Part shown: positions 13,890-57,287 of the stretch, one piece after another
How the letters are laid out: every line of letters starts with the position of its first letter
Position numbering within the stretch: the stretch's first letter is position 1
Source of the DNA: Mobula hypostoma
Taxonomy: Eukaryota
Reading direction: 5' to 3'
Assembly (NCBI RefSeq): GCF_963921235.1
Contig: NC_086129.1
Location: forward strand, 35,154,001 to 35,218,000
DNA: 64,000 nucleotides
Notes under the pieces: generated by a model
What the model saw: only the letters and a program-made list of their open reading frames with translations
Told to the model about the DNA's origin: nothing
The model's database searches: none
Made by a program: the position numbers and the translations under genes

Positions 13890-15016
13890 GCTGTGTAAAA
13901 AAATGTCTAACCCTGACTGCATCTTGTTGACTGCATCTTGTTTACTGCATTGCAATAAAGTTTTGAAACAAAGACAGCATTTAACTTCACATATCCAGGT
14001 CCCAACAAGATCATCCTCTACGTGTAAGCCATTGTCCATGTCTGTAGTGGAAGTTTGAAAAAAAACAGTATTGACTTAACATTGATTTTTTTACTTTTCC
14101 TATGCTGTGGCAATGTGTTCTTCTGAAACAAATGCTAAACCTGGGAGCATTTGGGTCTGTTTTTACAAGTGGTGGTGACTGAATGGAATTTGATTTATTA
14201 ACTGGAAGATCATTAACTAATGAATCTTAGTTTTCCCAGTTAATTATAAGCTGAGTTTTCTGATCAAGGTCTCATTTGACCATGAGTAAGTTTTTTTTCC
14301 TTTGAAATTACTACTTAAATTCTGGTAAATTTTATAACAATTACTTTATACCTGGAATTTTCTACTTGCTGAAGTTATAATCCCCAACTGGTCAATCCAC
14401 AGAAGGTTTTGGTTAACAGAAAAAAAATGCCATCATTAACTGAGTGCTGATTAGAGAGTTCCAATTGCGAAGGCCAGATCACGTCTGAGTAACCTAGTTT
14501 TATCATTTGAGAAAGATTACCATCATTCTGAACAATGGAGCATCTATTGATGTAGGACTTTTCTCATTAATTTTGACAAATAATATACAAAACTTAACAT
14601 GCACAGAATTGGATTAACCTTGTGATATGGGGTTGGTTATTGATTGGGAAGTAGGAATTGGAGAAGGCTAAAATGGTAAAAAGACTAAACAAAAAAAAAA
14701 GACCATCACAAACCCAGAGCAGGCTATTCAGGAAAGAAAGCAGGAAGACTTGTATCATAGTATAGTGGAAACAGACAGTTCTTCATCCAAATTCTGTACT
14801 AGTGTTTAAGTAAAAATTTCAAGTCTGAGATTGATAATTTACTGAAAAATTTATAATATGTAACATCAAATATAGACAGTTGAGACACAAATCAGTCACA
14901 ATATAACTCAAAGACGATCTCAAATGCTAAGTAGCTAACTCCTACTTCAACCCCAACACATTTTATCAATCTTTCTTTTAAAAGTATGTTTGCTCTTAGT
15001 AAAACCTTATACTGGA

Positions 15017-15899: not shown

Positions 15900-16580
15900 G
15901 GGGGTCAGTGTGGACATGGTGGAAGATTACAAATACCTGGGGATACGAATTGACAATAAACTGGACTAGTCAAAGAACACTGAGACTGTCTACAAGAAGG
16001 GTTAGAGCTGTCTCTATTTCCTGAGGAGACTGAGGTCCTTTAACATCTGCCGGACGATGCTAAGGATGTTCTACGAGTCTGTGGTGGCCAGTGCTATCAT
16101 GTTTGCTGTTGTGTGCTGAGGCAGCAGACTGAGGGTAGCAGACACCAACAGAATCAATAAACTCATTCGTAATGCCAGTGATGTTGTGGGGGTGGAACTG
16201 GACTCTCTGACAGTGGTGTCTGAAAAGAGGATGCTGTCTAAGTTGCATGCCATCTTGGTCAATGTCACCCATCCGCTACATAATGTACTGGGTGGGCACA
16301 GGAGTACATTCAGCCAGCGACTCATTCCACCGAGATGCAACACAGAGCGTTATAGGAAGTCATTCCTGCCTGTGGCCATCAAACTTTACAACTCCTCCCT
16401 TGGAGGGTCAGATATCCTGAGCCAATAGGCTGGTCCTGGATTTATTTCATAATTTCCCGGCATAATTTACATATTACTATTTAACTATTTATGGTTCTAT
16501 GACTATTTATTATTTATGGTGCAACTGTAACGAAAACCAATTTCCCCCTGGGATCAATAAAGTATGACTATTACTACTAC
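15900..16580 (+). mobile_element. Rex1/Babar-like LINE 3' fragment, family B
   Basis: MFYESVVASAIMFAVVC...RINKLIR...HPLH...TERYRKSFLPVAIKLYN; tail aataaagtatgactat. Closely similar to the copy at 23770-24340. Confidence 0.75.
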
Positions 16581-16599
16581 TAAATAAAGCAGAATATAC

Positions 16600-17135
16600 T
16601 GTGTGCTCTGCTGCAGGCGCGGGAAGTTTTGCCCTGTCACACTTGGTCGAGTTCACCAAGTGCGTACCGGTCAGGTCTGACGTGGCAAACAGAAACACGG
16701 CAGTAAAGGCCGATTTCACGTAAACACGAGGAATTCTGCAGATGCTGGAAATTCAAGCAACACACATCAAAGTTGCTGGCAGCATCTCTAGGAAGAGGTA
16801 CAGTCGACGTTTTGGGCCGAGACCCTTCGTCAGGATTTTAAGTACAGTTGCGTTTTTATTTATTTGCTTAACAACGAGCTGCCGGTTTGCAGCGATTATC
16901 CGCGGCCTGCTCCCAGATGAAGCCCCGGAAGCCAAACCGATCTTCAGGCAGCTCTCGCCTATCGCCCAGGACGGCACTGACATTAACCCCACACCACCCC
17001 TTTCACAAGTAATTTCCTGTTCAAGGAGAAAACTACAACCCCAGCCTGTTTCACCTGAGGAGCTCCGCAGAGCGAAGCTGTTCGCTTGACCGCGCCTATC
17101 GTCATCCAGCCATTAGCCACCGACGTCATAGAAAC
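16600..17135 (-). promoter_or_regulatory. aamdc: CpG-rich putative aamdc promoter and non-coding exon 1 (donor after 17055)
   Basis: Local CpG enrichment in otherwise CpG-poor DNA; CTCCTCAG|GTGAAA donor at 17055/17054; CRE-like TGACGTC at 17128-17122. Confidence 0.6.
16724..16835 (-). mobile_element. Short Penelope pseudo-LTR fragment with a mutated hammerhead motif
   Basis: Same terminal repeat as at 13295; the GAAA core reads AAAA. Confidence 0.75.
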
Positions 17136-17734
17136 AGGGACAAGTCACCTACATTTATATCCGTTGTAAATGCAGGGTTTCTGGTTTCTCATTTCTCATA
17201 AACTGAAGCCTATTTGCAAGGTCTAATTACTGAAAAATTAATCTCGTGCATAGTTTGCTTAGTCTGGAATTAAAATAAGTAAGAGTATTTACAGAAATGC
17301 AAAGCCACTTGTTATTTGTTTAAATATTACGCTCTTTTTAAGATTTAAATTTATCATCACAATATTGTAGTAGAGTTGAAAGAAAAACCTTGACGGCATT
17401 GAATAAAGAAAAGTCAGCTTGCAAAGTATACGCTATCTAGAAATGCCATAGACCAAAGTTCAAAAGTTCAAAGTAAATTTTAATATCAAAGTACATTTAT
17501 ATATCCATGTACAACCCTGAGATTCATTTTCTTGTAGGCATACTCAGCAAATTTATAGAATGGTAACTATAATAGGATCAACGAAAGATCAACTAGAGTG
17601 CAGAAGACAACAAACTGCAAATGCAAGTATAGATAAATAGGAATAAATAATGAAAACATGAGATAATGAGATAAAGAATCCTTGAAAATGAGGTAATTGT
17701 TTGGGGAAACATTTCAATGATGGGGCATAGGAGT

Positions 17735-18582
17735 ACCCTTTTTTCTCCAAAAAGTTCGATTTTAACTTCATCAGTCCATAGGACTTGTTTCCAAAATGCA
17801 TCAGGCTTGTTTAGATGCTCCTTCGAACCTTTTGAATAGAACTTTTTGGCCGAGAAAAAAGGGTGCAGAATTTCATGAAAAGAACACCTCTCCAACCGTT
17901 AAGCACGGGGTGAATTGATCATGCTTTGGGCTTGTGTTGCAGCCAGTGGCACAGGGAACATTTACTGGTAGAGGGAAGAATTCAATTAAATACCAGCAAA
18001 TTCTGGAAGCAAGCATCACACCGTCTGTAAAAAAAGCCGAAGATGAAAAGAGGATGGCTTCTACAACAGGATAATGATCCTAAACACACCTCAAAATCCA
18101 CAATGGACTACCTCAAGAGGCACAAGCTGAAGATTTTTGCCACGGCCCTCACAGTCCCCGACCTAAACATCATCAAAAGTCTGTGGATAGACCTCAAAAG
18201 AGCAGTGTATGCAAGACGGCCCAAGAATTTCACAGAACTAGAAGCCTTTTGCAAGGAAGAACGGGCAAAAATCCCCCAAACAAGAATTGAAAAACTCTTA
18301 GCTGGCTACAGAAAGCGTTTACAAGCTGTGATACTTGCCAAAGGGAATGTTACTAAGTACTGACCATGCAGAGTGCCCAAACATTTGCTTCGGGCCCTTC
18401 TCCTTTTTTGTTATTTTGAAACAGTAAAAGATGGAAATAAAAAAGTTTTCTTGCTTACAATATTAAAGAAATGTGTCATCTTTAACTTTATGCTTTTTGG
18501 AAATCAGTTCATCTTTTACTTGCTTAGCTATTCACAGTAACAGAAATTTTGACTGGGGTGCCCAAACTTTTGCATGCCATTG
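17735..18582 (+). mobile_element. Tc1-like transposon remnant (DDE transposase C-terminal half plus right TIR)
   Basis: WTDEVKIELFG (inverted piece), [45 protein letters not shown]; ends cccaaacttttgcatgccattg|ta. Confidence 0.85.
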
Positions 18583-22044: not shown

Positions 22045-22382
22045 GGCAACAGACAGCAAAGTTGCTGGTGAACGCAGCAAGCCAGGCAGCATCTCTAGGA
22101 AGAGGTACAGTCCACGTTTCAGGCCGAGACCCTTCGTCAGGACTAACTGAAGGAAGAGTTAGTAAAAGATTTGAAAGTGGGAGGGGAGGGGGGAGATCCA
22201 AAATGATAGGAGAAGACAGGAGGGGGAGAGATGGAGCCAAGAGCTGGACAGGTGATTGGCAAAAGGGATATGAGAGGATCATGGGACGGGAGGCCCAGGG
22301 AGAAAGGGGGGGGGGGGAGCCCAGAGGATGGGCAAGGAGTATAGTGAGAGGGACAGAGGGAGAAAAAGGAGAGAGAGAGAAA

Positions 22383-22428
<46 letters not shown>

Positions 22429-22995
22429 AATAACGGATGGGGTACAAGGGGGAGGTGGGGCAGTAACGAAGTTAGAGAAGTCAATGTTCATGCCATCAGG
22501 TTGGACGCTACCCAGATGGAATATAAGGTGTTGTTCCTCCAACCTGAGTGTGGATTCATCTTTACAGTAGAGGAGGCCGTGGATAGACATATCAGAATGG
22601 GAATGGGACGTGGAATTAAAATGTGTGGCCACTGGGAGATCCTGCTTTCTCTGGCGGACAGAGCGTAGGTGTTCAGCGAAATGATCTCCCAGTCTGTGTC
22701 GGGTCTCACCAATATATAGAAGGCCACATTGGGACCACTGGACGCAGTACATCACCCCAGCTGACTCACAGGTGAAGTGTTGTCTCACTTGGAAGGACTG
22801 TCTGGGGCCCTGAATGGTGGTAAGGGAGGAAGTGTAAGGGTGTGTGTAGCACTTGTTCCGCTTACAAGGATAAGTGCCAGGAGGGAGATCGGTGGGGAGG
22901 GATGGGGGAGGGAAATGAATGGACAAAGGAGTCGCGTGGGGAACGATCCCTGCGGAAAGCCGGGGGGTGGGGGGAGGGAAAGATGTGCTTAGTGG
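22045..22995 (-). mobile_element. Penelope-like retroelement 3' fragment with GIY-YIG endonuclease and pseudo-LTR; (TA)n at 22387-22419
   Basis: ORF 22423..22926: GTYPCKRNKC...GVMYCVQ..QCGLLYIGETRHRLGDHFAEH...PVATHFN...EEQHLIF..G..QPDGMN. Hammerhead-like motif at 22109-22144 with GUG at the cleavage site. Confidence 0.9.
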
Positions 22996-23472: not shown

Positions 23473-23769
23473 CTAAATACAAGAAAAACACAACTCAGTT
23501 TTACCTCAAAAGCAAGACTTCAATTGATTAAACAGAGAAAAAAAATGTTCTTAAAAAGGGAAAAGCTGTTATTGAATAATGCTAGAAATAGAGAAATTTA
23601 ATGTCAAAAAGATATTAATTGCAGGAAATACAGAAGTCCTGACCAATACTACACTTGTGTAGATGGGAAATTACACAATTTTTGTAATTTAAAGAAATGA
23701 GGAAATCAGACTGGTAATTCAACATCTATTACAAAGATTATTGACCATTTAGAGCAGCTCAAGCTTATT

Positions 23770-24340
23770 GAAAAGCCAACATACAGGAGACTGAGGTCCT
23801 TTAACATCTGCCGGACGATGCTGAGGATGTTCTACGAGTCTGTGGAGGCCAGTGCTATCATGTTCGCTGTTGTGTGCTGGGGCAGCAGGCTGAGGGTAGC
23901 AGACACCAACAGAATCAACAAACTTATTCGTAAGGCCAGTGATGTTGTGGGGATGGAACTGGACTCTCTCATGGTGGTGTCTGAAAAGAGGATGCTGTCT
24001 AAGTTGAATGCCATCTTGGACAATGTCTCCCATCCACTACATAATGTACTGGGTGGGCACAGGAGTACATTCAGCCAGAGACTCATTCCACCGAGATGCA
24101 ACACAGAGCGTCGTAGGAAGTCATTCCTGCCTGTGGCCATCAAACTTTACAACTCTTCCCTTGGAGGGTCAGACACCCTGAGCCAATAGGCTGGTCCTGG
24201 ACTTATTTCATAATTTCCTGGCATAATTTACATATTACTATTTAACTATTTATGGTTCTATTACTATTTAGTATTTATGGTGCAACTGTAACAAAACCCA
24301 ATTTCCCCCTGGGATCAATAAAGTATGACTATGACTATTA
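23770..24340 (+). mobile_element. Rex1/Babar-like LINE 3' fragment, family B
   Basis: ORF 23818..24189; (atgact)n tail; closely similar to 15900-16580. Confidence 0.75.
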
Positions 24341-28990: not shown

Positions 28991-30095
28991 CTGTTTAGAA
29001 AGAAGAAAAATATCAGACCATAGTGTAACTTTAGATTAGACTGACAGTATAAGCACAATCCTACAACACACTAACCTTTGAAAGTATAAAGCTCCTTCGA
29101 TAGCATAGAATAATTATTTGGTTTGTTTTATCATTTTCTTAAAAAACACATGCAATAGGGAAAAAAAATCCGTGGAATTTTTGGTCCTGCTGAAGGGTCT
29201 CAGCCCAAAACATCAACTATGTTCTTTTTCCATAGACCCTGCCTGGCCTGCAGAATTCCTCCAGCATTTTGTGTGTGTTATATAGCTTTTGATTTCTCCC
29301 CCCCCTCCCCCCCCCACAAACCCACACCAAATTTCAAACATTAGTGCTTTGGCTATTAACATTCCTTGCAGCATTAAATACACATGGATGAAATTAGGCA
29401 TAAAATGCACAAAGTGAAATTATTATTCAATTATACAACACCCAGCACACACATTGGATAGAGATCATTTTCAAATTTCATTAGTTTCCTTTTTATGTAT
29501 ATCACTAACTTGGCCAGGTACCAGGACCATGAGTTTTAGCTCTCTTTTAATTCAATATCATATTCCAACTGTTCACATCATCTGTGCATATCCATTCGCC
29601 ACCTACTTCAAATCAACAAACTCACCAGCAGTGGTAATAACTCTCCCTTGGCACATTACATATGCAGGAACACCAAACATAACAATCTTCCTAACTTTAA
29701 TTCCTGTTGAATTGAACCCATGTGTCAACATATTTAAAACACGTCAGTAATTAAATTATAATTTGACTGCTGTGACAAGGGGAAACCAAATAATTTCACA
29801 CAATATTTTGCTTCATTATTTACTTGCTTCTGTAAAAAAGTTAACTTCCGAGAAATTAAACAAAAATACAAGTAAAAACAAGGCAGGCAAATAAATACAT
29901 TTTTATCGGAATCTGACCCATTTAAAGCACAGGATAATTCATGAAAAGCAACATTAATGTAACTACTAGAGAGCTCCTTTATTTTTGTTTGCAAATTATG
30001 AAACAAGTGAATAGACGACACTTTCCGTTCTCTAGATTCCTTAATAGGGGAATGATTGACAACTAAAGAATTGTTCGTACAGCAAGACAAATTAC

Positions 30096-30350
30096 CTCTA
30101 AATCTACCCAGACCATTCTCTTTGCCATATCTTGTGCTTCCACAGTGGTGAGACGCCGAGGCATCAGCAAAGCTGCAGGACTCGAAGTGAATACGGGCTG
30201 CCGAGAAGCCAGAAACGGGCGGCCGACAGAAGGCGTAAAGCTACCGAACAAGCAATTAGCAAAATGACTACCCCTCCAAGACCAGAGCACAGCCACAGTG
30301 CACAGAGACTCCACTTTAAGGCCAACCCTGAAACCACGCAGCATCAACAT
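30096..30350 (-). CDS. rexo2: REXO2 exon 1 (putative mitochondrial presequence plus start of the DEDDh domain)
   Basis: MLMLRGFRV...MAKRMVWVDLE then GTAATT. Spliced CDS is 846 nt (281 aa) with DLE, HAD and SHRALDD catalytic motifs intact. The choice of start codon is less certain than the 3' part. Confidence 0.9.
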
Positions 30351-30600
30351 GAGCCTGACCGCAAAGTCGCCAATCGGTTCCCGCGCGCCTATCAGCAGGC
30401 CCCAACCACTGTCGCAAAGCGCATCATAAAATCTGATGGCTTTACGATATTAGCCCACTGGTGGGGCTGTGACTGAATTTCTGTTACAGTGCAAATTAAA
30501 ACAACGCGGACAGTTTGTCGTCAGCACGTTTTTTAAAATTATGTATGCTGTTTAACGTCCATATCATTAAATTAAATTAATTAAATTAAATTAAGCTAAT
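30351..30600. promoter_or_regulatory. rexo2: rexo2 promoter region, possibly bidirectional
   Basis: CpG-rich; gccaatc at 30369-30375; cgcgcctatc; AT-rich (ttaaa)n block at 30567-30594. Confidence 0.5.
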
Positions 30601-33600
30601 ATGGCTGGTGGGTTGTCTCTCGTCTGTTGCACGGTGTTGCTGCCGTCTCATTCATTCGCGTTAGCTATGAAGTCTCTCTGCGTGCAGAGTAATCACAGGC
30701 CCGTCCATTCAACTGGGGCAAGTCCTAGACTTGACGTGCCTGTACTATCCACCATACACTGGCTGACCGAGATGGGCGGTTGTCTCCGTCAGTTTGATTC
30801 CCGCACTGGAATTAGCCGTTCCTCAAATCACACGGTCACATCAGAGAATCGTCTATCAGATCCGAGAAGAACCGAGACTCGTTGATTTAAAGCGGATTCT
30901 CGATCAGCCGATTTGGAGGTCCACTGCAAGGTAATTTTAAAAACACACTTTGCTTTACCTTAATATTTTAATGATTATCTACAAATGATTTCACGACATA
31001 TGTCGATGATATTAAATCTGATTCTGATTAGTTTATTTTCATATACAGCCCGGTGTATTAAAATTCCTTGTTCGTGTGAAGCTTACAGAGTAAAGAGACT
31101 ACTTGGTAAAAATGCATGCAGCATCGAGCGCAAAAGAACAGAAAGGTGCATTTTGAAGTAGTGCTAAAAGAAATGCTAAAGCGACAATAACGGAATAATC
31201 GAGAGAGGTAGAATTGAGAACGTGGCAGCACCACCGGTAAGGGGATGTGAAAGGTCAATTACTCTTTTTCACTATTAACGTTTCCATGGTGTTCATTTTG
31301 TGTGTTTAAATAAAAATGTTCTGAAACTGAAAATTCACAACAGGCAAAACAGAGAGGCAAAATGTACTCCTCAAGCTTTGCCCATTGTCAGGTATTCAGT
31401 TCATGGGCCAGGACTTTTGTACCGCATTGTTCTGTACCTCAGACCATGTCCCTCCCACCTCAAGGACGTGGGGATATAGTGATATCACCAATGAAATATC
31501 CGCCCAGTTAAGTGTGGACGTCCAGCGATTTATAGTGGTGATTCTGGGTGGTGGAAAAATGTTTGAGGTTTTCTGATTTTTTTAATGCCATTCAACCCAT
31601 TAAATCTGTGAAGACTCAAGAGATTGCAGGTGATGGAATCTGGAGCAACAATCATGTAGAACGAGAGTCGAGTCCATGTTGACTTTCTGATCAATACCAG
31701 TAATCCCATTTCTGTCAGACTTATTCCCTGCCACACTTATGTTAAAACCCCTAATCCTATTTTCATGTCTTTAAATTTTCTGTCAAGCTTTGCAGATAAT
31801 GAGTATGCTTAGCTCTGGTTGAGACAACTTTGGTTGCCAACTGATGCTTTTTTCAACAATTGAACCTCGATATTGCGGACTAAAAGGTTCAAAGGTTCAC
31901 TTTATTGTTGAAGTGTGCCTGTATAATACAACTCTGATATTTGTCTACTTCAGATAGCCATTAAATATAGAAAGACCATGGGTGTCGATGAAAGAAAAGA
32001 CATCTACTCCACCCCCCCCAACAACCGGTATGAAAAAGAAAGAAAGAAAACTCGCAGACCACAAAATACCTCCCTTCGCTTGCGGCAAAAAACAGGCACA
32101 ATAACAATCAACAACCCCTTACAGGTAATAATCCCCAACCCCCTCACTCGCAGAAAAGAACGGCGACAGTAGCACCAAATCCCCAACCCCCCCCCAGCAC
32201 ATACAAAATAGTAACCGATCACCCACCTGCCAATCATCCACAAGAAGGAAAACACTAAAAAATTATAGGAAATTGTAGGAAACAGTCCAATAATCACATA
32301 AATCTCAGAATATGGGAAATGTCTTTTTGTCTGCATACGAGGAGAGCAGCCACGTGAACTCAGTCCTTCCATAAAGAGTGACCGCTAACCCGGGTGCAAG
32401 TGCCACCAATCTGGCTGCTGACTGTCTCTGTTGGGAGTCATCACTGACCTGCTCCAGACTCTTTGACCAGGGATGAGATGTAGGCTCGTCACTCTTGGCA
32501 TTTAACCTGTTGGAGTTCAAAAGTAATAGATGAGGCTTAGTTTCTTCTTACTAACTAATTCACTGATAACATGTGCATTATCTCTTTGCTGATATATTTT
32601 AATTAAGTTATTGGACTGAGAGTCAAACCAAAGCCTTTCTTGTCTTCCTGGTTCTCTACAGTGTTGGTATTATTTGATGAGTTGCATTGGGAGCAAACTA
32701 CAAAGTATGAATATGTTTCCAATAACAGAAGTTTATTGCTTAAATCCAGGTGTTCAGTTTGGGTAGATTAATATTGTTGGATTGACAAAATGACTGAAAT
32801 CTGTTACTGTGCCACTTCTGATATGAAATCATTCTTCTGTCTAGAAAGACTCATTTAATGGGTAGCTATTTTGGCGCTGTAGATCTAGAAGATTCATCAC
32901 AACCACAACCCTCACCACCATTGAGGACATCTTCAAGAGGCAGTACCTTAAGAAGGTACAGGGTTTCACTATAAAGACCCTCAGCATCCAGGACATGCCC
33001 TCTTCTCATTACTACCGTCGGGGAAGAGGTACAGGAGCTTGAAGACCCTCACTCAACAATTCAGAAACAGTTTCTTCCACTTCGCCATCAGATTTCAGAA
33101 TGGTGCGGGAACATGACAGTTTTTTTTGCACGATTTATTTTGTACTTTATAGTAGTTTTGATTTTGCGATTTACAGCTGCAGCAAAACAACAAATTTCAC
33201 ATCATAGAAGACAGTGATAATAAACTGGATGCTGAAGGTCAATACATAGGGGCAGCAGGACATGAGATTATGATATCATGGATTATGTATAGCTCCAATA
33301 TTGTATTCTGGCTTCCTTGATCTAAGAAACACTATGCCATTTTCTGTTCCAATTTATTTATAAAAGGATTATTTTTAATATTTATATTCCATGTGTTGCT
33401 TATCTTTGTATCAGCAAACTTGAATGTGGATAATTTTTAAAAATTGTTTTATCTTAATGTTATCTTGCCACACAAAGTTGTTCATGAACAATAAAAGAGA
33501 TTTGAGAGCACAATACAGGCTGCTATGGGATGTCGCCAGTAATAGCCTGTTAATTAGAGTACTTGCATGTTATCCCCTATTTAGGTCTTCAGCTCAGTCA

Positions 33601-34556
33601 TCATTAGTTTGGCTTCAATTCCATGAGCTTCAGTTTTCACTAATTGTGTCTTTAAGATGAGCTCTATTGACTGGAAGTCCATACAAGTAGATGTTCCTCT
33701 ATCTACTATTTACAGTTCTCTTTTTCTAAATTTTAAAATAAAAGCTTCTTTGGTTCAGTAAACATGACTTGTCTTTTATACATGGATGCTGGCTGTTCGA
33801 TCAGCTTAAAAAAAAATCAGTGCCCTCAACGTCTTCTATGCCTGCTTTGAAGATAACTACAGCTGTGAAGATCCCTGCTGCACCCGATGACCCTATGATC
33901 TCTGTCTCAGAGGCTGATGTTAGGCTATCTTTAAAGAGACTGAGAGTGGACCCTCGCAAGGCGGACGGTCCTAATGGAGTACTTGGTAAGGCTCTGAAAA
34001 CCTGTGCCAACCAAATGGCAGGAGTATTCAAGGACATTTTCAACCTATCACTGCTACGGACGGAAGTTCCCACTTGCTTCAAAAAAGGCAACAATTTTAC
34101 CGGTGCCTAGGAAGAACAATGTGAGCTGCCTTAATGACTGGTAGCACTCACATCTACAGTGATGAAATGCTTTGAGAGGTTGGTCATGACTAGACTGAAC
34201 TCCTGCCTCAGCAAGGACCTGAACCCATTGCAATTTGCCTATTGCCACAATAGGTCAATGGCAGATGCAATCTCAATGGCTCTCCACACGGCTTTAGACC
34301 ACCTGGACAACACCAACACCTATGTCAGGGTGCTGTTCATTGACTACAGCTCAGCATTTAATGCCATCATTCCCACAATCCTGATTGAGAAGTTGCAGAA
34401 CCTGGGCCTCTGTACCTCCCTCTGCAATTGGATCCTCGACTTCCTAACCGAATGACCATAATCTGTGTGGATTGGTGATAATATCTCCTTCTCACTGACG
34501 ATCAACACTGGTGCACCTCAGGTGTGTGTGCTTAGCCCACTGCTCTACTCTTTCTA

Positions 34557-35542
34557 CAGGTGTCCCCCGCTTTTCGAGTGTTCGCTTTACGTAACCTCAC
34601 TGTTACGAAAGGCCTACATTAGTTCCCTGTTTTCGCTAACAGAAGGTGTTTTCATTGTTATGAAAAAAACCAGCGCGCGCCCTGAGCAGCCGCTCTCCCC
34701 CGGATTTGGAACTGCATTCTTGCCGGCATTGCTTAAACACGAGCCTCTGAGCAGCCGTTAGTAAGATGAGTTCTATGGTGTTGGAAAAGCCTGAAAGAGC
34801 TCGTAAGAGTGTTACACTTAGCGTAAAACTAGACAATTAGGTGCCGCCCAGCACGTAATTGTCAGCCCAGATCAGAGGCGATGCAATCGGCACTGATCTG
34901 GGCTGACAATTACGCGCTGGGTGGCACCTAATTAATTAGCATGTTTATTTCAGTTTTTTTCTTAAAGATGTGCTGGGTGCCTCCCGGCTACCGCTGCATG
35001 CTTCGCGGATCGGTATTGGTCGGCGGCCTGGAGGGTGGAGGCCACTGCACCACCCAAACTCCAACGACTTAGCCTAACACACCATCAGTGTGCTCGGCGC
35101 TGTCCCAATTACGGTAAGTGATATACACTGTACATATATTATTTCTACTTTATATCGGCTGTGTATTTTTACGTGTTATTTGGTATGATTTGGCAGCTTC
35201 ATAGCTTAAAGGTTACTGGAGAGTGCTTGCGCCGTGTTTCTGCGGAGAGCGCTTGCGTGAGATTTTCGCTACGGAGAATAGTTCAGGCAATGATTGTGAT
35301 AAAGTATTTTTACTCTATATAGACTGTGTATTTATCATAACATTACTGCTTTTACTATATGTTACTGTTATTTTAGGTTTTATATGTTATTTGGCATGAT
35401 TTGGTAGGTTATTTTTGGGTCTGTGAATGCTCACAAAATTTTCCCATATAAATAAATGGTAATTGCTTCTTCGCTTTACGACATTCCGGCTTACGAACCG
35501 TTTCATAGGAATGCTCTACCTTAGGATGGTGGGGGAAACCTG
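34557..35542 (+). mobile_element. Tigger/pogo-type non-autonomous DNA transposon
   Basis: TA|CAGGTGTCCCCCGC ... GGTGGGGGAAACCTG|TA imperfect TIRs with TA target duplication. Internal MSSMVLEKPERARKSVTLSVKLD resembles a CENP-B/Tigger N-terminus. Confidence 0.8.
34835..34933. repeat. 99-nt near-perfect inverted repeat inside the Tigger element
   Basis: aattaggtgccgcccagcacgtaattgtcagcccagatcag...ctgatctgggctgacaattacgcgctgggtggcacctaatt. Confidence 0.9.
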
Positions 35543-38289
35543 TATACCCATGACTGTGTGGCTAGGTACAGCTCAAATACCATCTAAAAATTTGCTGATG
35601 ATACAGCCATTGTTGGTAGAATCTCAGGTGGTGACGAGAGGGCGTACAGGAGCGAGATATGCCAACTAGTGGAGAGGTTTCGCAGCAACAACCTGGCACG
35701 ACGTCAGTAAGACGAAAGAGCTCACTGTGAACATCAGGAAGGGTAAGACGAAGGAACACATACCAATCCTCATAGAGGGATCAGAAGTGCAGAGAGTGAG
35801 CAGTTTCAAGTTCCTGGGTGTCAAGATCTGAGGATCTAACCTGTTCTCAACATATCAATGCACTTATAAAGAAAGTAAGATAGCAATTATACTTCATTAG
35901 GAGTTTGAAGTATTTGGTATGTCAATAAATACACTCAAAACCTTCTATAGATGTACCATGAAGAGCATTCTGACAGGCTGCATCACTCTGGTATGGAGGG
36001 GCTACTGCACAGGACCGAAAGAAGCTGTAGATGATTGTAAATTTAGTCAGCTCCATCTTGGGTACTAGCCTACAAAGTACCCAGGACATCTTCAAGGAGC
36101 AGGGTCTCAGAAAGGAAGCGTCCGTTATTAAGGACCTCCAGCACCCAGGGCATGCCCTTTTCTCACTGTTACCATCAGGTAGGAGGTACAGAAGTCTGAA
36201 GGCACACACTCAGCGTTTCAGGAATTGCTTCTTTCCCTCTGCCATCCGATTCTTAAATGGATATTGACCCCTTGGACACTACCTCATTTTTTAAAATATA
36301 CAGTATTTCTGTTTTTTGCACATTTTAAAATCTATTCAATATACATATTTTGTGCAGATCACAAACACCATCTCCACCTTGCTGATGATCAACACTGGCG
36401 CTACTCTCTCTACACCCATGGACAGTGTGGCTAGGTATTTCACAAATGCCATCTATAACTTTCCTTATGATGCAACTAGTGTTGGTAGAATCTCAGATGG
36501 TGATAAGAGGGCATACAGGAGTGAGATCTACTAGCTAATTAAATGATGTCATAGCAACAACCTTGCACTCAACATCAGTAAGACAAAAGAACTGATTGTG
36601 GACTTCAGAAAGGGCAAGAGAAGGGAACACACACACGCCAGTCCTTGGAGGGATCAGAAGTGGAAAGAGTGAGAAATTTCAGGTTCCTAGATGTCAATAT
36701 CTCTGGGGGTCTAACCTGGACCCAACGTATTCTGTTAACAGTATCAAAGAACCAAAAGCCTTCCTTTAACAAGGCCAAAGTTTTTGTGGTGGTCATTACT
36801 TTGGCTCGTTGTCTGATCCCTCCTTCTTTATACTGACTATTGCCCTCTGCACTCTGTCCTGATGAAAGGTCTTAACCTGAAACCTTTGCTCCCTTAGATG
36901 CTGTTTGATCTGCCTATTCCCTCCAGCAGTTTTTCTTTTGCTCCAGATTCCTCCATCTACAGTATCTTGTGTCTCTAGCAAACATGACTCTGATACACAG
37001 ACTTCCAATTGCAGAAACACCCATCAACCATTATCCTCTGCCTTTTATCTGTGAGTACTGGTGGTTATTTTTTAAATGTACAATTATATTTAATGGAATA
37101 GTTTTCAATAAATGCAAATGCATAATTTTGTGGATGTTAGGTATCTATACCAATCAAAACCAAAACCAAAGAGCTGATTAACACGCAAAATGCTGGAGGA
37201 ACTCGGCAGGCCAGGCAGGCAACTTTTTGGGCCGAATCCCTTCATCAGGATGAGCTAATTATCGGCTACAGGAGGGAGAAGCCAGAGGTCCATGAGCAAT
37301 CCTCATTAGGATATCATAGGTTGGAGAGGGTCAGAAGCTTTAAATCCCTTGGTGTTAGCATATCAGATGACCTGTCTTGGGACCAGGATATAAGGGTTTT
37401 CACAAAGAAGGCACAACAGTGCCTTTATTTTCTTTGAAGTTTGCATAAATTTGGCTGTCGCCAAAAACTTTGACAAACTTCTATAGATACACAGTGGAGA
37501 ATATCCTAACTGGTTGCAGGAAAACACCAATACCCAGGTACAGAAAGACTACAGAAAGTTGTGGATATAGCCCAGTCCATCACAGGAAAAGTCCTCCCCA
37601 CCATTGAGCACATTTTTGTGGAGTGCTGCGTGAGAAAGCAGCATCCATCATCAAAGATCACTACTATGCAGGCTTGCTGCTACCATCAGACAAGTCTTGG
37701 GTCCCACATTACCAGCTTTAGGAACAGTTAATACCCTACAACCATCAGGCTCCTGAACTGGTGTGGATAACTACTCACCACAACTCTGCATTGATTCGAT
37801 GACCTCCTGGACTCTTAGTATTATTTATTTTATTTGCAGTTTCTCCTCTTTTGCACATTGGTTATCAGTCTTTGTTTGTGTATAGTTGTTAGTAAATTAT
37901 TTTATATTTTATTTTTTCTGTAAATGCCTACAGGAAAATGAATTTCACATATATACTTTGATAATTTGAACTAAAATGTCAGAAAATGTTGGAATCAAAG
38001 TCGAGCAGTTTCGTGCGGAGGGATGCATGGTTTGAAGTGCTAGTCTCCTGAAATACTAACTGTTTTTCTCTCTACAGATAGTCTAATTTGCATGTATAGT
38101 TCCAACATTTACTGTTCTTTTTCAAAGCATTTTAAACAGTTAGTTTATATTTATGTATATTATATAAAATACAATACTTCTATTCCATATCAGTTTCTAA
38201 ATATTGTTAAAGGTACCGTCAAAATTTTGTGATGTAGATCCTTGATAACTATATTTTCAAAAGTCACAAACAGGAGAAATTCTATAACA

Positions 38290-38715
38290 CAAACACGAGG
38301 AAATCTGCAGATGCTGGAATTTCAAGCAACACACATAAAAGTTGCTGGTGAACGCAGCAGGGCAGGCAGCATCTCTAGGAAGAGGTACAGTGGACGTTTC
38401 GGACCGAGACCCTTCCTCAGGACTAACTGAAAGAAGAGCTAGTAAGAGATTTGAAAGTGGGAGATTTGAAATGTCGACTGTACCTCTTCCTAGAGATGCT
38501 GCCTGGCCTGCTGCGTTCACCAGCAACTTTTATGTGTGTTAAGAGAAATTCTACAGATGCTGGAAATCCACTTAACACACACAAAATGCTGGGGTAACTC
38601 CCTGCCAGGCAGCATCTATGGGAAAGAGTAAACAGTCGACGTTTCGGGCTGAGATCCTTCGCCGATGCTGCCTGGCCAGTTGCGTTACCCCAGCATTTCG
38701 TGAGTCTGTTGCTCA
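38290..38715. mobile_element. Two tandem fold-back Penelope pseudo-LTR derivatives
   Basis: Inverted arms 38328-38400 / 38468-38540 (73 bp, 3 mismatches by eye); second fold-back at about 38543-38715; hammerhead-like motif at 38389-38424. Confidence 0.8.
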
Positions 38716-38879: not shown

Positions 38880-38972
38880 ATGGGCGTATCGGATGATGCT
38901 AACAGGACGCTGTTCATTGGGAACTTGGACGCGAAAGTAACGGAGGAGCTTCTGTTCGAACTGTTCCTCCAG
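38880..38972 (+). CDS. rbm7: RBM7 exon 1
   Basis: MGVSDDANRTLFIGNLDAKVTEELLFELFLQ then GTGAGT (RRM RNP2). Confidence 0.94.
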
Positions 38973-39492: not shown

Positions 39493-39655
39493 GCCGGTCC
39501 GCTTGTGACAGTAAAAATCCCCAAAGATAAGGACGGGAAGTCAAAGCAGTTCGCATTCGTGCATTTTAAACACGAGGAGTCAGTCCATTACGGAAAGGAT
39601 TTGCTGAATGGAATCCCGCTATTTGGCAGGGCTATCAAAATCCAGTTCAGATCAG
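39493..39655 (+). CDS. rbm7: RBM7 exon 2
   Basis: AGPLVTVKIPKDKDGKSKQFAFVHFKHEESVHYGKDLLNGIPLFGRAIKIQFRS(G), AG/GT, RNP1 KQFAFVHF. Confidence 0.95.
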
Positions 39656-42445: not shown

Positions 42446-44369
42446 ATAGAACATATAGAACATAGAATAGTACAGCACAGTACAGGCCCTTCGGCCCACA
42501 ATGTTGTGCCGACCCTCAAACCCTGCCTCTCATACAACCCCCCACCTTAAATTCCTCCATATACCTGTCTAGTAGTCTCTTAAATTTCACTATTGTACCT
42601 GCCTCCACCACTGACTCAGGCAGTGCATTCCACGCACCAACCACTGTGTTTGGCATAGGCTTCATGGGCTAAATGGACTGCTCCAGACGTATCATAGTAT
42701 GACAACAGTTTTGTCATGTCTGCAAGGAGTTGTGGGCACAGCTCAGCACATCATGGAAACTAGCCTCCCCTCCATGGACACCATCTACACTCCTCACCAT
42801 CTCTGTGAAGCAGACAACATAATCAATAATCCAACTGACCCCTGACATTCTTCTCCTTCCTCCCATATGGAGGAAGATACAAAAGCCTGAAAGCCCATAC
42901 CACCAGACTCAGGTGGAGTAAAAAAAACCTTCCTCTAATATCCCCCTTGAACTTCCCACCCCTTACCTTAAAGCCATGTCCTCTTGTATTGAGCAGTGGT
43001 GCCCTGGGGAAGAGGCGCTGGCTATCCACTCTATCTATTCCTCTTAATATCTTGTATACCTCTATCATGGCTCCTCTCATCCTTCTCTCCAAAGAGTAAA
43101 GCCCTAGCTCCCTTAATCTTTGATCATAATCCATACTCTCTAAACCAGGCAGCATCCTGGTAAATCTCCTCTGTACCCTTTCCAATGCTTCCACATCCTT
43201 CCTATTGTGAGGTGACCAGAACTGGACACAGTACTCCAAGTGTGGCCTAACCAGAGTTTTATAGAGCTGCATCATTACCCCGCGACTCTTAAACTCTATC
43301 CCTCGACTTATGAAAGCTAACACCCCATAAGCTTTCTTAGCTACCCTATCTACCTGTGAGGCAACTTTCAGGGATCTGTGGACATGTACCCCCAGATCCC
43401 TCTGCTCCTCCACACTACCAAGTATCCTGCCATTTACTTTGTACTCTGCCTTGGAGTTTGTCCTTCCAAAGTGTACCACCTCGCACTTCTCTGGGTTGAA
43501 CTCCATCTGCCACTTCTCAGCCCACTTCTGCATCCTATCAATGTCTCTCTGCAATCTTCGACAATCCTCTACACTATCTACAACACTACCAACCTTTGTG
43601 TCGTCTGCAAACTTGCCAACCCACCCTTCTACCCCCACATCCAGGTCGTTAATAAAAATCTCGAAAAGTAGAGATCCCAGAACCGATCCTTGTGGGACAC
43701 CACTAGTCAAAATCCTCCAATTCGAATGTACTACCTCCACCACGACCCTCTGCCTTCTGCAGGCAAGCCAATTCTGAATCCACCTGGCCAAACTTCCCTG
43801 GATCCCATGCCTTCTGACTTTCTGAATAAGCCTACCGTATGGACCCTTGTCAAATACTTTACTAAAATCCATATAGATCACATCCACTGCACTACCCTCA
43901 TCTATATGCCTGGTCACCTCCTCAAAGAACTTTATCAGGCTTGTTAGACACGATCTGCCCTTCACAAAGCCATGCTGACTGTCCCTGATCTGACCATGAT
44001 TCTCTAAATAACCATAGATCCTATCTCTAAGCATCTTTTCCAACAGCTTTCCCACCACTGACGTAAGGCTCACTGGTCTATAATTACCCAGACTATCCCT
44101 ACTACCTTTTTTGAACAAGGGGACAACATTTGCCTCCCTCCAGTCCTCCGGTGCCATTCCCATGGACAACGAGGACAAAAAGATCCTAGCCAGAGGCTCA
44201 GCAATCTGTTCCCTCGCCTCGTGGAGCAGCCTGGGGAATATTCCGTCAGGCCCCAGGGACTTGTCCAATTCCCTAAATGTATTTTAACAACTCCAGCACC
44301 TCCTCTCCCTTAATATCAACATGCTCCAGAACATCAACCTCACTCATATTGTCCTCACCGTTCCCATTC
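42446..44369 (-). mobile_element. Young 5'-truncated CR1 with an uninterrupted RT ORF (481 aa)
   Basis: ORF 42823..44268: NYRPVSLTSVVGK, QHGF, DFSKVFD, GVPQGSVLG, KFADDTK, RPHLEYCVQFW. The C-terminus is chimeric with the inverted insert. Confidence 0.92.
42645..42911 (-). repeat. 267-bp inverted copy of 41082-41348 inserted within the CR1
   Basis: Base-by-base reverse-complement match with about 8 substitutions and no indels (counted by eye). Confidence 0.92.
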
Positions 44370-45482
44370 CATGGGGATCATGAGTGAACAGTCCTTTTCA
44401 AGTCCAGCCACAAATTCTCAATTGGATTGAGATCTGGTCTCTGACTTGGCCACTTCAGGACATTAACTTAGTTGTTTTTAAGCCATTCCTATGTAGCTTT
44501 GGCTTTATGCTTGGGGTCATTGTCTTGCTGGAAAACAAATCTTCTCCCAAGTTGCAGTTCGCTTGCAGACTGCGTCAGGTTTTCCTCCAGGATTTTCCTG
44601 TATTTTTGCTGCATTCATTTCACCCTCTCCATTCTCAAGCCTTCCAGGGCCTGCTGCAGTGAAGCATCTGATGATGTACAGGTGTTCGGCTTGCGCCAAA
44701 CATACTATTTAGTCTGATGGCCAAAAAGCTCAATTTTGGTTTCATCAGACCCTAGAACCTTCCAGCTGACTTCAGTGTCTCCCACATGCCTTCTGGCAAA
44801 CTCTAGCTGAGATTCCATGTGAGTTGTTTTTTCAACAGTGGCTTTCTCTTTGCCATTCTCCCAAAAAGCTGCGACTGGGAACGCACTTGGACAGCAGTCT
44901 CTCCCATCTCAGCCATTGAAGCTTGTAACTCCTCCAGAGTTGTCAATGGTCTCTTGGTGGCCTCTTGCAATAGTCCCCTTCTTGCACTGTCACTCGGTTT
45001 TGGAGGACTGCCTGCTCTGGGCAGATTTACATCTGTGCCATATTTTTTCCATTTCTTGATTGTCTTAACTGTACTCCAAGGGATATTCAGTGACTTGTAC
45101 ACTTTCTTGTATCCATCTCCTTGTACTTTTCAATACTCTTTTCATGGAGTTGCTTGGAGTGTTCTTTTGACTTCATGACATAGTTTTTGCCGGGATACTG
45201 ACCAGAGCTGGAACTTCCAGTTGCTGCTGCTGATGCTGGAGCAACAGTAGACCAGACATACAGTTTTCTGTGATTTTTGATTTTTTTTAAGCTGAAGTGA
45301 AGATGTTACTTCTATTTATGGAAAAGAGCGCATTGATTTTTTAAAAATAGAAATGAACGTGCTCTTTCTGCACAGGAAAACAAATTGTGTGGTAGTTTTA
45401 AATGTGTAAAGCAGGAATGTTAAATTTGCATTGTTTATACTTGAAATGGAAATTTGTAAACAAACCTTTGTTCCCTTCATAG

Positions 45483-46203: not shown

Positions 46204-46303
46204 GTTGGATCGATCAACAGATAGAGGATCTCAGGTATTTGCAACTCCACAATTGGTTCAGAGATCATTTTCTACACCTGATAATCTTCAAAGACAGGTC
46301 ACG
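46204..46303 (+). CDS. rbm7: RBM7 exon 4 (terminal exon not found)
   Basis: LDRSTDRGSQVFATPQLVQRSFSTPDNLQRQVT then GTAAGA. The conserved QRSFSxPxNxQRQ motif fits RBM7 rather than RBM11. Confidence 0.92.
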
Positions 46304-47820: not shown

Positions 47821-48020
47821 NNNNNNNNNNNNNNNNNNNNNNNNNNNNNNNNNNNNNNNNNNNNNNNNNNNNNNNNNNNNNNNNNNNNNNNNNNNNNNNN
47901 NNNNNNNNNNNNNNNNNNNNNNNNNNNNNNNNNNNNNNNNNNNNNNNNNNNNNNNNNNNNNNNNNNNNNNNNNNNNNNNNNNNNNNNNNNNNNNNNNNNN
48001 NNNNNNNNNNNNNNNNNNNN
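47821..48020. other. Assembly gap (200 N)
   Basis: Exactly 200 N, flanked by truncated repeats. Confidence 1.
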
Positions 48021-50526: not shown

Positions 50527-53379
50527 TATTGTGTATTTAATATTTCAGTAATATTTGAGTAATATTGTAAGTATTGTTTGATTAAGCTTTCTTGTTCATT
50601 TAAATAATTCATTATGGGTTATATGCAAAAATACATGAATTGCATATGTTATGGCACTATCACATGAAGTAAAGAACAAACTAAGACTCTTATCTCTTGG
50701 GCTCCTGTCTTTTGCTTTCAATTGCTTTTTATGGTTTGGAGTTACAAAACATAACAGTGGTCATGAGATATTTTAAAAGCGAACCAGAGGCAAGTACCTA
50801 CCTCTTGAAGTGCAGGAAGACATAGAAGTTTTTTTTAAAGTGCAGCAAGGAGAGGTTGATTTAAAAGAAAAGCACAGCACTTTTTTTTCTTCAGAGCAGC
50901 ACCTTTTCTCTGCAAAAGGAAAGACGTTCGAGTTTTTTAAAAAGGCAAAATCGGGTTGAGTTCACGGGTTCATAAAAATGCAGAAATAGCTAGTTATATC
51001 GGAAAGGTTAATACATTTAATTACATGACAGATAAGTGGATTTTGTATACTGAACAGATTAAGCAGGTATATTTTGAAGCAAATGAAATAGCCAATGAGA
51101 AGTGAATACCAATTTTACTGAGTTATTTGGATTTAAAGGCAGACAGTTTGCTTTGAAGTTTAACCACTCCAATCAAACCAGCTGAAATGAGCTATGCTGG
51201 GGTCATGAAAGTAATGCAGGAATGTTTAGAACCGGGACCATTGTTTATTGCAGAACACTTTAGGTTTCATAAGCAGAATCAAAAGCAAGAGGAATCCATT
51301 TCAGCATACGTGGCTGAATTGAAAAGACTGAGCATTGTCAGTTTGATAATGGGCCTAATAATGCACTGAGAGATTATTTAGTTTGTAGAATCTTTCAAGA
51401 AAACTTTCAGAAATGGCTCCTAACTAAAACACAACTTAGATGTAAAAGAACATTTGAAATAGCTGTATCAATGGAAACGGCAGACAGGCGCAATTGAGTT
51501 GCAGTCAGGAATGAAAATTAGCGTGAATGATATTGTAACGTCTAAGCAGAAACTGGCCTGGCTAAACAAAATGTGTTACTGTTATGTCAGGGGCTCATGA
51601 GACCAATGCAAGTTTAAAAGCAAAACTTGCAGAAAATGCAAAACACATACAAAGAGCATGTCAGACAGACAAAAATAAATGGACTGTACAGGGTAAAGAA
51701 AAATATTAAAAAGTTAAGTTACTATTTCAGAAAGAGCACTAATGTGCATGCTGTTGATGAAAAATCTGATAATGAAGAGAGGGCTGGGTAGTTTTGAGAT
51801 TTACAATGTGACAACTAACAATAGGCAAGCAATATGGCTTACACTGGAAGTGAACAACAAATTAATTAAAATGGAATTGGACATTGGCTTAGCTGTTAGT
51901 CATTCCACAAAGTTAGTTTGAACGGCATTACAAAGATGCTAAACTGAAGCCTGCAGATATTCAACTAAGAACTTATACTGGAGAGAAGATAACTCCTGTG
52001 GGAATGACATTCATAACCGTGAAATACAATAACTAACAAGCCACATTGAGTTTGTATGTGGTAAAAACAGGAGGGCCAGCATTGTGAAGACATGATTAGC
52101 TGAAACAACTACAACTTGGTTGGAGATCCATCCAGAATTTGCATACCGCATCTCCTACTGTGAAGCCATCTGAAAGCAAATTAACAAAGATACTGCATGA
52201 CGACACAACTGTCTCCATGCTGAACACCGTGAATTGTGGCACAACAGAGGACAAACGGGTGTTGGTGCCAATCTCAGTGCCTCTGGTTGGAAAACATATT
52301 GGACCAAGGAAGGACCATGCTGCTCAGAGGAATCATGAACGTGACGAAAGCACTGGTCTGACTACAAGAGCTTTTGCAGGCAAAATCTCCGAGAAAGCGT
52401 CTGATATGTTAATCAGGCAGTTACTTGCAAAATGTGGCTTGTTTTTAAGCTGGAAGAGAGTTCAGGGAGCTTCAGGAAAGTTGCAAGCATTCGGCTTTTG
52501 TGAATCTAAAGAGCCAGAATCTACTCTGCATGCATTAGGTTATTGCATGAGCTTCAAGTGGGAGGCAAAAGCTGCTTGTAAAAGTAGATGCAAAGACCAC
52601 ACTCCAGCTGGATGAATGGAAACCCAAAAAGAAAGGAGTCAATTGAGATACAAAAACAGTGGAGTTGTTAGATGATGTGGATGAGGAAGTCAAGAGGAGA
52701 GATCAGATCGTAAAGGGAGCAACAGGAAGGATGAATAAGAGAATATTTCAGTGAACTAAATACCCAAGATCAAGATGCACATCCTAAAAAGATGAAAAAG
52801 GACAAGAAAGTTTTACAGAGCTGTCAGAACAGGTTCCTGCAGTCATAGAGTCAACTTATACAACCACCATGGAAGAGGCCCCAGAGCCACAGCCACAAGT
52901 CTCTCCTGCCAAGCAGTGTGACCCCTCCCCCCTTTCTTGTCAAGAAAGACATTATCCCACAAGAATAAGAAATCCTCCACAGGGATGAAATCTTTAGACC
53001 TGAAGGGGACAATTAAAACATTTACTATGCTGTGGATGTCTGTACATAGCAGTTGTATTATATAGTATACTGTCTATACACTTGAGATTCATTCAACATT
53101 GAGTTGGAGTTTATAGCTAAGCAGGAAGGAGTGTTGTGTATTTAATGTTTTAGAGACATTAGAGTAAAAGTAAATATTGTTTGGTTAAGTATTCTTGTTT
53201 GTTTAAATAATTCATTACAGGTTATATGTAAAAATAAGTGAATTGCATATGCCACAGCACTACCACGTGATATGTGTATGCCTTGCTTAAAGTAAAGAAT
53301 AAATTAAGATTCACATCTCTTGGGCCCCCCTCTTTCGCCTTCAATTAGATTTTGTGTTTTGGAGTTATAAAACGTAACA
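50527..53379 (+). mobile_element. Gypsy/Ty3-type LTR retrotransposon, internally deleted, carrying an RBM25 retro-fragment
   Basis: 5'LTR 50527-50756 and 3'LTR 53132-53379 (TGTT...AACA; first TG mutated in the 5' copy). PBS-like tggtcatgag at 50758 and polypurine tract at 53119-53131. Decayed gag from about 50986 (IAEHFRFHKQNQKQEESISAYVAELKRL), Cys/His knuckle remnants, protease MELDIGLAV at 51871, and pol tail RHYPTRIRNPP. Confidence 0.88.
52259..52810 (+). pseudogene. rbm25: Processed RBM25 fragment (RRM region) inside the LTR element
   Basis: VLVPISVPLVGKHIGPRKDH...KISEKASDMLIRQLLAKCGLFLSWKRVQGASGKLQAFGFCESKEPESTL, then across frameshifts LLHELQVG, LLVKVDAKT..QLDEWK.KKK, DEEVKRRDQIVKGA, IREYFSELN, HPKKMKKDKK. 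No introns; frameshifts and one TGA. Confidence 0.92.
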
Positions 53380-55088: not shown

Positions 55089-55221
55089 ATGAGTGACACA
55101 CACGGGCGTAGCTTTGTTGAGGTTATTTGTGAGAAGTATAGCCCAGAAAACTTCCCATATCGACGAGGAATGGGTATTGGCATCCACGTCTCTGTTGGGC
55201 CCGAGGGTTCACCTGTGAAAG
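55089..55221 (+). CDS. tbcel: TBCEL (tubulin-specific chaperone cofactor E-like), first coding exon
   Basis: [44 protein letters not shown] then GTGAGT. Candidate acceptors at 55060 and 55067. Confidence 0.93.
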
Positions 55222-56030: not shown

Positions 56031-56776
56031 CACTCTGGCCACTTTATTGGGTACATTTGCTTGTTAATGCAAATATCTAATAAATCAGTCATGCAACAGC
56101 AACTCAATCCATAAAAGACACAAGAGGTACTGCAGATGCTGGATGTCTAGAGCAATACTCACAATGTGCTGGAGGAGTTCAGCAGGTCAGGTAGTATGAA
56201 GGATCTCGGCCTGAAACGTCAACTGTTTATTCCCATCTATAGATGCTGCCTGACCCGCTGAGCTCCTGCAGCACTTTGTGTGTCTTGCTGAGTGCATAAA
56301 ATTATGCAGATATGGTCATGAGGTTTTGTTGTTGTTCAGACAAAACATCAGAATGGGGAAGAAATGTTACCTGAGTGACTTTGATCGTGGAATGATTGTT
56401 GGTGACATATGGGTGGGGTGGGGTTGAGTCACTCAAACTGCTGATCTCCTGGGATTTTCACACACAACAGTCTCTAGAGTTTACAGAGAATGGAGTAACA
56501 CCAAGAAACATCCAGTGAGTTTGGTTCTGTGGGTGAAATGCCTTGTTAATGAGAGAGGTCAGAGGAAAATGGCCAGACTGGTTCATGCTTACAGGAAGAA
56601 AACAGTAACCCAAATAACCACACATAACAATAGTGGTGTGCAGACAAGCATCTGAACACACAGCACGTCGAATCTTGAAGTGGATGGGCTACATACAGCA
56701 GCAGAAGACCTCCAGATGCACTCAGTGGCCACTTCATTAGGTACAGGACATACTTAATAAAGTAGCCACTAAGTAC
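56031..56776 (+). mobile_element. Tc1/mariner-like non-autonomous element with a nested Penelope-derived fold-back (56117-56290)
   Basis: Imperfect TIRs cactctggccactttattgggt / acttaataaagtagccactaagt; internal remnant MGKKCYLSDFDRGMIVG. Confidence 0.65.
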
Positions 56777-57147: not shown

Positions 57148-57287
57148 CTCGTCTAAACCTTCCTGCTGTCCTCGTGCTGGATGGTTGCGGAATTAACAGA
57201 GCCGGAGAGGAGAGTGACATTGCTGCCTTCTGCTCGCACGTTTCTGAACTCGACTTGTCCGATAATAATCTACAAGACTGGTACGAG
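57148..57287 (+). CDS. tbcel: TBCEL second coding exon (start of LRRs); gene continues beyond the window
   Basis: (A)[46 protein letters not shown], 140 nt, AG/GT, phase matches the previous exon. Confidence 0.94.

Follow-up and report, generated by a model that had tools for sequence, protein, structure and literature searches.

A decayed Ty3/Gypsy-type LTR element in which an apparently spliced RBM25 coding fragment stands in place of most of pol

The window, by which we mean the whole 64-kb stretch of DNA analysed here, carries on its forward strand the exons of an rbm7-like gene, a defective copy of a Ty3/Gypsy-type LTR element (50527-53379) and the first coding exons of a TBCE-like LRR gene, in that order (Table 1). 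Two exons of the rbm7-like gene, the short third one and the last, were not found in the window, where a 200-N assembly gap may hide sequence, and as the last exon is missing, the element between the two sets of exons may lie in an intron or in intergenic DNA. The TBCE-like LRR gene, for whose first exon the Atlas returned nothing, is presumably TBCEL. No CpG-rich promoter was visible between rbm7 and the TBCE-like gene, the gap region aside, so that the two genes may share a read-through transcript or the LTR may act as a promoter 1.7 kb upstream of the TBCE-like gene. Upstream of rbm7, CpG-rich stretches were seen at 30000-31000, 34500-35500 and 16500-17500, one of which may be the promoter of a divergent minus-strand gene.

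Table 1. Parts of the element and neighbouring features, in positions of the window
Feature	Position	Strand	Description and evidence
rbm7-like exons	38880-38972, 39493-39655, 46204-46303	+	First two E 9e-24 to RBM7 structures; CpG-rich start
Assembly gap	47821-48020		200 N, between rbm7-like exons and element
5' LTR	50527-50756	+	230 nt; without 20 nt found in the 3' LTR; first dinucleotide altered by one base; CA end
PBS-like site	50758-50767	+	TGG one base beyond the 5' LTR; read directly from the sequence
Decayed gag	50986-51790	+	Remnants of two CCHC knuckles (~51574-51660); tblastn with P0122, P0121, P0129, P0186, P0228, P0230; Pfam of homologues
Decayed aspartic protease and protease-RT linker	51791-52213	+	Homology to Gypsy-type polyproteins
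45 nt of neither protease nor RBM25	52214-52258	+	Open, in frame between protease linker and RBM25
RBM25 coding fragment, apparently spliced	52259-52809	+	Residues 53-241 of the Varanus protein; RRM, following helix, acidic-basic stretch
End of pol	52810-53000	+	~60 codons (low-complexity spacer and terminal R-YP-R-R-PP motif); C-terminus alignment
Polypurine tract	53119-53131	+	12/13 purines, abutting the 3' LTR
3' LTR	53132-53379	+	248 nt, TG...CA; LTR-LTR alignment
TBCE-like LRR gene, first coding exons	55089-55221, 57148-57287	+	E 0.0012 to TBCE

The two LTRs aligned with 186 of 228 columns identical (81.6%), 32 transitions, 10 transversions and one 20-nt indel, and their K2P distance was 0.219 (bootstrap 0.16-0.30). 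The five bases flanking the element match at three of five positions, which fits both a decayed target-site duplication (TSD) and chance, and the PBS-like site is a candidate recognised by the position of its TGG; no tRNA gene was found in the 64-kb window. The LTR alignment and the homology searches confirmed the coordinates that an earlier note on this DNA had given for the element. The order of parts described there, running from LTR, PBS-like site, gag, knuckle and protease through RBM25 to the pol tail, polypurine tract and LTR, stands as well, but the 45 nt between protease and RBM25 had been overlooked. Its statement that all cis signals are kept holds loosely, the LTRs and the polypurine tract being present but the terminus of the 5' LTR altered.

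The gag gene has lost its start codon and carries several stops and frame shifts, with both CCHC knuckles damaged, and in the protease the catalytic motif is altered and one frame shift and three stops have accumulated. Searched against the library with HMMER, the protease-linker piece matched 1144 proteins at E ≤ 0.001, and the best 150 were aligned back to the window; there they match only this element, from 50986 to ~52213. On the protease side 13 of the alignments end at 52213 and 13 at 52195, and a few weak ones run further. Word-seeded homologue searches yielded 90 candidates for the protease and 38 for the gag pieces, none at E ≤ 0.001, and Pfam gave only weak matches for the window's own fragments (RRM_1 E 0.027; PNMA E 0.03-0.04). 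The Pfam domains of the homologues follow the order gag, CCHC knuckles, aspartic protease, RT, RNase H and integrase, with RVT_1, RT_RNaseH, Integrase_H2C2 and rve succeeding one another in P0125, P0135, P0186 and P0228; protease, RT, RNase H and integrase in this order are the Ty3/Gypsy arrangement. The two knuckles and the lack of env here fit Mag-type clades, to which the element, now devoid of RT, may belong.

The RT-RNase H-integrase part of six homologous polyproteins matched the element at a best E of 0.13 and the whole window nowhere at E ≤ 1e-3, in line with the earlier note, which had seen no RT, RNase H or integrase motifs between the protease and the tail. The tail itself matched the extreme C-terminus in two of the four full-length homologues (0/500 and 13/500 shuffles, p 0.026 for the second); its matches to the remaining two were not significant. 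The homologue polyproteins are ~1320 residues long, the 5' break falls near residue 415 and ~60-65 terminal residues are kept, so that roughly 850 codons (2.5 kb) of RT-RNase H-integrase have given way to 0.6 kb. Pol was thus replaced, with discontinuous flanks, rather than interrupted.

The homology to RBM25 was established through seven named proteins and runs through four frame segments separated by three frame shifts, with one stop. Identity to the Varanus protein is 75% in amino acids over the first 93 codons (combined E ~6e-50), and it is about equal, at 71-78%, to RBM25 of lizard, frog, bichir, gar, bowfin and sturgeon, which loosely fits a shark or ray as host. A search with the open reading frame at 52100-52612 found 305 proteins of 301-2000 residues, and the 120 listed were RBM25-named or RRM-bearing relatives; our counts use the 113 named ones, among which there is no named shark or ray RBM25, and omit seven unnamed ones. 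None of the 113 is a chimeric protein and none covers the reading frame's first 35 residues in its alignment, while 69 of the 113 alignments begin at the first RBM25 residue of the insert; in the Atlas the chimeric reading frame matched generic RRM clusters only. The insert stands in sense orientation, its 5' end fused in frame with the protease and its 3' end, placed between 52810 and ~52836, out of frame with pol. No poly(A) occurs at the insert, as the earlier note had observed (the longest A-run in 52151-52900 is 5), and no TSD was found around it, the longest repeats shared by the two junction regions being one 7-mer, which belongs to the RBM25 coding sequence, and 6-mers such as chance would give. 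The element does not lie within rbm25, and the parental gene is absent from the 64-kb window, where the other RBM25 hits are low-complexity RE repeats. A GA-rich repeat at 12909-13096, for instance, yields runs of RE on translation and accounts for false RBM25 hits.

No usable exon structure of vertebrate RBM25 was among the literature matches listed, and intron positions were deduced from gene-model variants of named RBM25 proteins of other vertebrates. Between KLQ and AFG, 8 of 109 named models, including two isoforms of one frog gene, carry an insertion of 3-5 residues, which most probably reflects an alternative donor and hence an intron at this position. The second position is NG, just behind the RRM, where several models continue into V and one passes straight to the following exon. 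Neither position breaks the insert, which therefore reads as spliced, with at least two putative introns passed in a comparison with gene models of other vertebrates. We further assume a third intron within the RRM of RBM25. The intron loss claimed in the earlier note thereby gains indirect support from the KLQ/AFG and NG positions, and both speak against a source within a single exon, which that note had named as contrary to its view. A DNA duplication of a single exon was rejected as the source of the insert on the same putative introns.

The ends of the insert appear to relate to exon borders as well. In 4 of 108 RBM25 models all sequence upstream of VLVP is exchanged for unrelated sequence, which in two of them ends in acceptor-like FFQ or LFLQ (a fifth flagged model was a partial homologue and was left out), and this exchange suggests that the homology begins exactly at an exon start, that of a VLVP exon. 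At the other end, 14 of 106 models continue with V after KKEK-E-E/D, which probably marks an exon end; the insert would halt 5 nt before it, its 3' junction being uncertain to ~52836.

The 45 nt in front of RBM25 resemble neither neighbour. Compared with 40 named RBM25 proteins they scored no better than shuffled sequence (68/100 shuffles as high), and they have no second copy above 10 nt within the window and no match to the insert's own last exon. A decayed preceding exon of RBM25 was rejected (36/200 shuffles as high, against 0/200 for the first 50 nt of the insert as a control), and another part of pol is unsupported by the comparison with 21 long Gypsy proteins (83/100 shuffles as high). 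The 45 nt may come from a third template or represent an rbm25 exon, alternative or non-coding, that splicing had joined to the VLVP exon.

The decay of the insert was assessed on the 76 positions at which 95% or more of 101 ungapped named RBM25 cores agree, 9 of 110 cores being dropped for insertions and the frame-shift region left unscored. Twelve of the 76 residues are changed in the insert, where neutral simulation predicts 15.0 changes (9-22) at d=0.11, which is half the LTR distance, 11.4 at d=0.08 and 19.4 at d=0.15 (P of ≤12 = 0.036). The insert has decayed neutrally, about as far as the LTRs, and was captured near the time of insertion; it is not much older than the insertion. This speaks against a lengthy existence as a non-autonomous lineage and leaves room for a brief burst. 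An intact frame under purifying selection, as in a functional retrogene, is not what the frame shifts, the stop and a count of changes in the neutral range describe, and neither the element nor the insert has an evident present-day function. The data support the earlier note in regarding this copy, with its diverged LTRs and decayed insert, as old and dead. A pedigree rate of 7e-10 per generation (CI 1.4-14.1e-10) is given for the epaulette shark in the part of PMC10587355 used here; it would place the insertion at ~1.6e8 generations, which is implausibly old, and an absolute date was therefore dropped and only the term 'old' kept.

A double (or triple) template switch onto a co-packaged, spliced rbm25 RNA is the best explanation of this anatomy, with a probability that we put at about 0.6. 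A spliced rbm25 transcript would have been packaged in a Ty3/Gypsy particle, where the reverse transcriptase would have left the element RNA during reverse transcription, copied ~600 nt of host RNA and rejoined the element, with one join just past the protease and the other ~60 codons short of the end of pol, and some 2.5 kb of RT-RNase H-integrase would thereby have been replaced. The proteins of an intact copy would have integrated the chimeric cDNA with both its LTRs between the rbm7-like and TBCE-like genes, and the integrated copy would then have decayed neutrally. Truncation on both sides inside the coding sequence, the sense strand and the in-frame 5' fusion speak for template switching, being features of such events in the sections of Tan et al. 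2016 (PMC5131818) drawn on here. The hallmark of such switching is microhomology at the points where the template changes. Random switching, on the other hand, should produce an exon-exact 5' end rarely (a few per cent by a rough estimate), except where another exon, unseen here, lies in front. The 45 nt are also longer than the 2-26 bp of de novo junction sequence given in the Drosophila section of that paper, and the five bases flanking the element match at three positions only.

The exon-exact start and the in-frame 45 nt make a splice-based capture of the oncogene-transduction type possible, although we hold it to be unlikely. A step-by-step model exists for the transduction of oncogenes by retroviruses, and a similar course here would begin with a sense copy of the element in an rbm25 intron upstream of the VLVP exon, where a deletion or a cryptic exon (the 45 nt) would provide a donor; the LTR transcript would be spliced from gag-protease to the rbm25 exons, and a single switch of the reverse transcriptase would lead back to the pol tail. 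The RBM25 homology would then start exactly at an exon, with a G before it as at most donors, the foreign 45 nt would be in frame and only the 3' end would fall inside an exon, all of which agrees with the locus. In retroviruses, viral or cryptic donors splice to host acceptors and chimeric transcripts underlie capture, according to the part of PMC515179 used here. However, fewer events are needed if an alternative host exon made this junction, and selection would probably remove a sense insertion from so conserved a splicing-factor gene. A circular rbm25 RNA as template, in which back-splicing would have joined the end of a downstream exon, now the 45 nt, to the VLVP exon, is very improbable. 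It would account for the exon-bounded ends of the insert, and the 50 nt before the insert do show a likeness to a stretch from the C-terminal part of RBM25 that ends in TEEKR (6/200 shuffles); mouse pseudogenes derived from circRNA and flanked by LTR-element sequence are known as well (PMC4897178, in the part used here). Yet the TEEKR stretch was picked after the alignment, whereas the whole-protein test of the 45 nt gave nothing above shuffled sequence, only 2 of 107 RBM25 models break near that stretch, and the 45 nt are unlike the insert's own last exon; a literature search for 'circRBM25' found no paper.

That one or another of these three LTR-mediated routes was taken is highly likely. 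The alternative of a LINE-made rbm25 retrocopy, which would have landed in the element and later lost its 3' part and its tail together with most of pol, or would have landed in an already deleted element, is improbable. LINE-type RT remnants are abundant in the window, erosion at K ~0.1 per site may have erased a short TSD or tail, and cartilaginous fishes are rich in retrocopies, whose abundance across vertebrates follows non-LTR content, in the part of bioRxiv 10.64898/2026.06.26.734816 used here. But two events would be needed whose end points exactly mimic the anatomy of a template switch, neither tail nor TSD was found, the sense orientation and in-frame fusion would be left unexplained, and the insert is not younger than the LTRs within error. 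The earlier note had preferred LTR-mediated capture of a spliced mRNA to a LINE retrocopy, and the replaced pol, the lack of poly(A) and of an insert TSD, the 3' end inside the coding sequence and the crossing of at least two putative introns favour the same choice; a TSD or poly(A) around the RBM25 piece with pol contiguous on either side, which it had named as contrary evidence, is not what the locus holds.

The element is a further case of the already described LTR-mediated retroposition, which in the sections of Tan et al. 2016 (PMC5131818) drawn on here is reported for fly, zebrafish Gypsy and mouse and for maize Bs1, together with multi-template chimeras and a Gypsy family that switches back near exon junctions; zebrafish Gypsy-flanked retrocopies are given in its supplement S8. 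As in those retrocopies (Drosophila CG17604_r, the zebrafish Gypsy-flanked ones and mouse IAPEy ENSMUSG00000083549), a partial mRNA replaces an internal part of the reading frame with both LTRs kept, poly(A) and insert TSD are lacking, the fusion is on the sense strand and in frame, and extra junction sequence is possible. Unlike them, the present copy is much older (~0.1 substitutions per site), comes probably from a cartilaginous fish, which is not among the species in those sections, has its 5' end at a putative exon start behind 45 nt and is known from one decayed DNA copy. Maize Bs1 (PMC5131818, same sections) is likewise an LTR element with spliced host exons in its coding region, but holds pieces of three genes, exists in 1-5 copies with shared junctions and has a protein, against the one decayed copy known here. 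With retroviral oncogene transduction, as far as the part of PMC515179 used here describes it, the element shares host coding sequence that replaces pol in frame behind gag and a 5' junction at what is probably an exon start; it differs in its carrier, a Ty3/Gypsy element without env, and in that its captured gene bears no mark of selection. The circRFWD2-derived pseudogenes, in the part of PMC4897178 used here, are similarly exon-bounded, tail-less and associated with LTR-element sequence, whereas no back-splice junction is demonstrated in this insert.

What appears to be new, judging from the exon borders deduced above, is the exon-exact start of RBM25, the stop 5 nt before an exon end and the 45 nt in frame in front. 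No RBM25 or chondrichthyan LTR-captured case was among the literature matches listed, which is weak evidence, and the retrocopy lists of bioRxiv 10.64898/2026.06.26.734816, a source used in part, may include the locus. With this copy, the range of LTR-mediated retroposition comes to include a Gypsy element that is old and probably chondrichthyan; the copy is also an unusually complete fossil, with both LTRs, a PBS-like site and a polypurine tract. As surveys credit non-mammalian retrocopies mostly to LINEs (bioRxiv 10.64898/2026.06.26.734816, in the part used here), LTR-captured cases test that assumption. The exon-exact 5' end also raises the question whether Gypsy elements capture host sequence only by double template switching or, as retroviruses do, by readthrough and splicing too.

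The suggestion in the earlier note that a non-autonomous family has been spreading the RRM found no support, there being no second copy of the LTR or of the interior in the 64-kb window, no chimera among the 113 named hits and no greater decay in the insert than in the LTRs. It is doubtful, in our estimate, that this env-less Gypsy fossil of a cartilaginous fish gained its 5' junction by splicing from an element copy in rbm25, with an in-frame fusion of Gag-protease to the RBM25 RRM, and then gave rise to a short-lived non-autonomous family with shared junctions. Were this so, the RRM of a host splicing factor would have come under LTR control at many loci.

Besides the element, the window holds several other repeats. 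LINE-type reverse transcriptase reading frames lie on the minus strand at 42823-44283, presumably of CR1-like type and fairly young, being open for 486 codons, and at 3297-4194. A LINE 3' end is present in two 556-nt copies of 94.6% identity (16024-16579 and 23785-24340), with an open frame at 23701-24189. Remnants of a GIY-YIG-like endonuclease, which we take to be of Penelope type, occur at 22423-22995 (minus strand) and 13722-14075 and adjoin a repeat common to 13287-13791, 22046-22531 and 38285-38551, some copies of which form inverted pairs (13726-13889, 38317-38551). Fragments at 18031-18363 (plus strand), 44384-44800 and 56320-56760 are, by their motifs, presumably of Tc1/mariner-like transposases.
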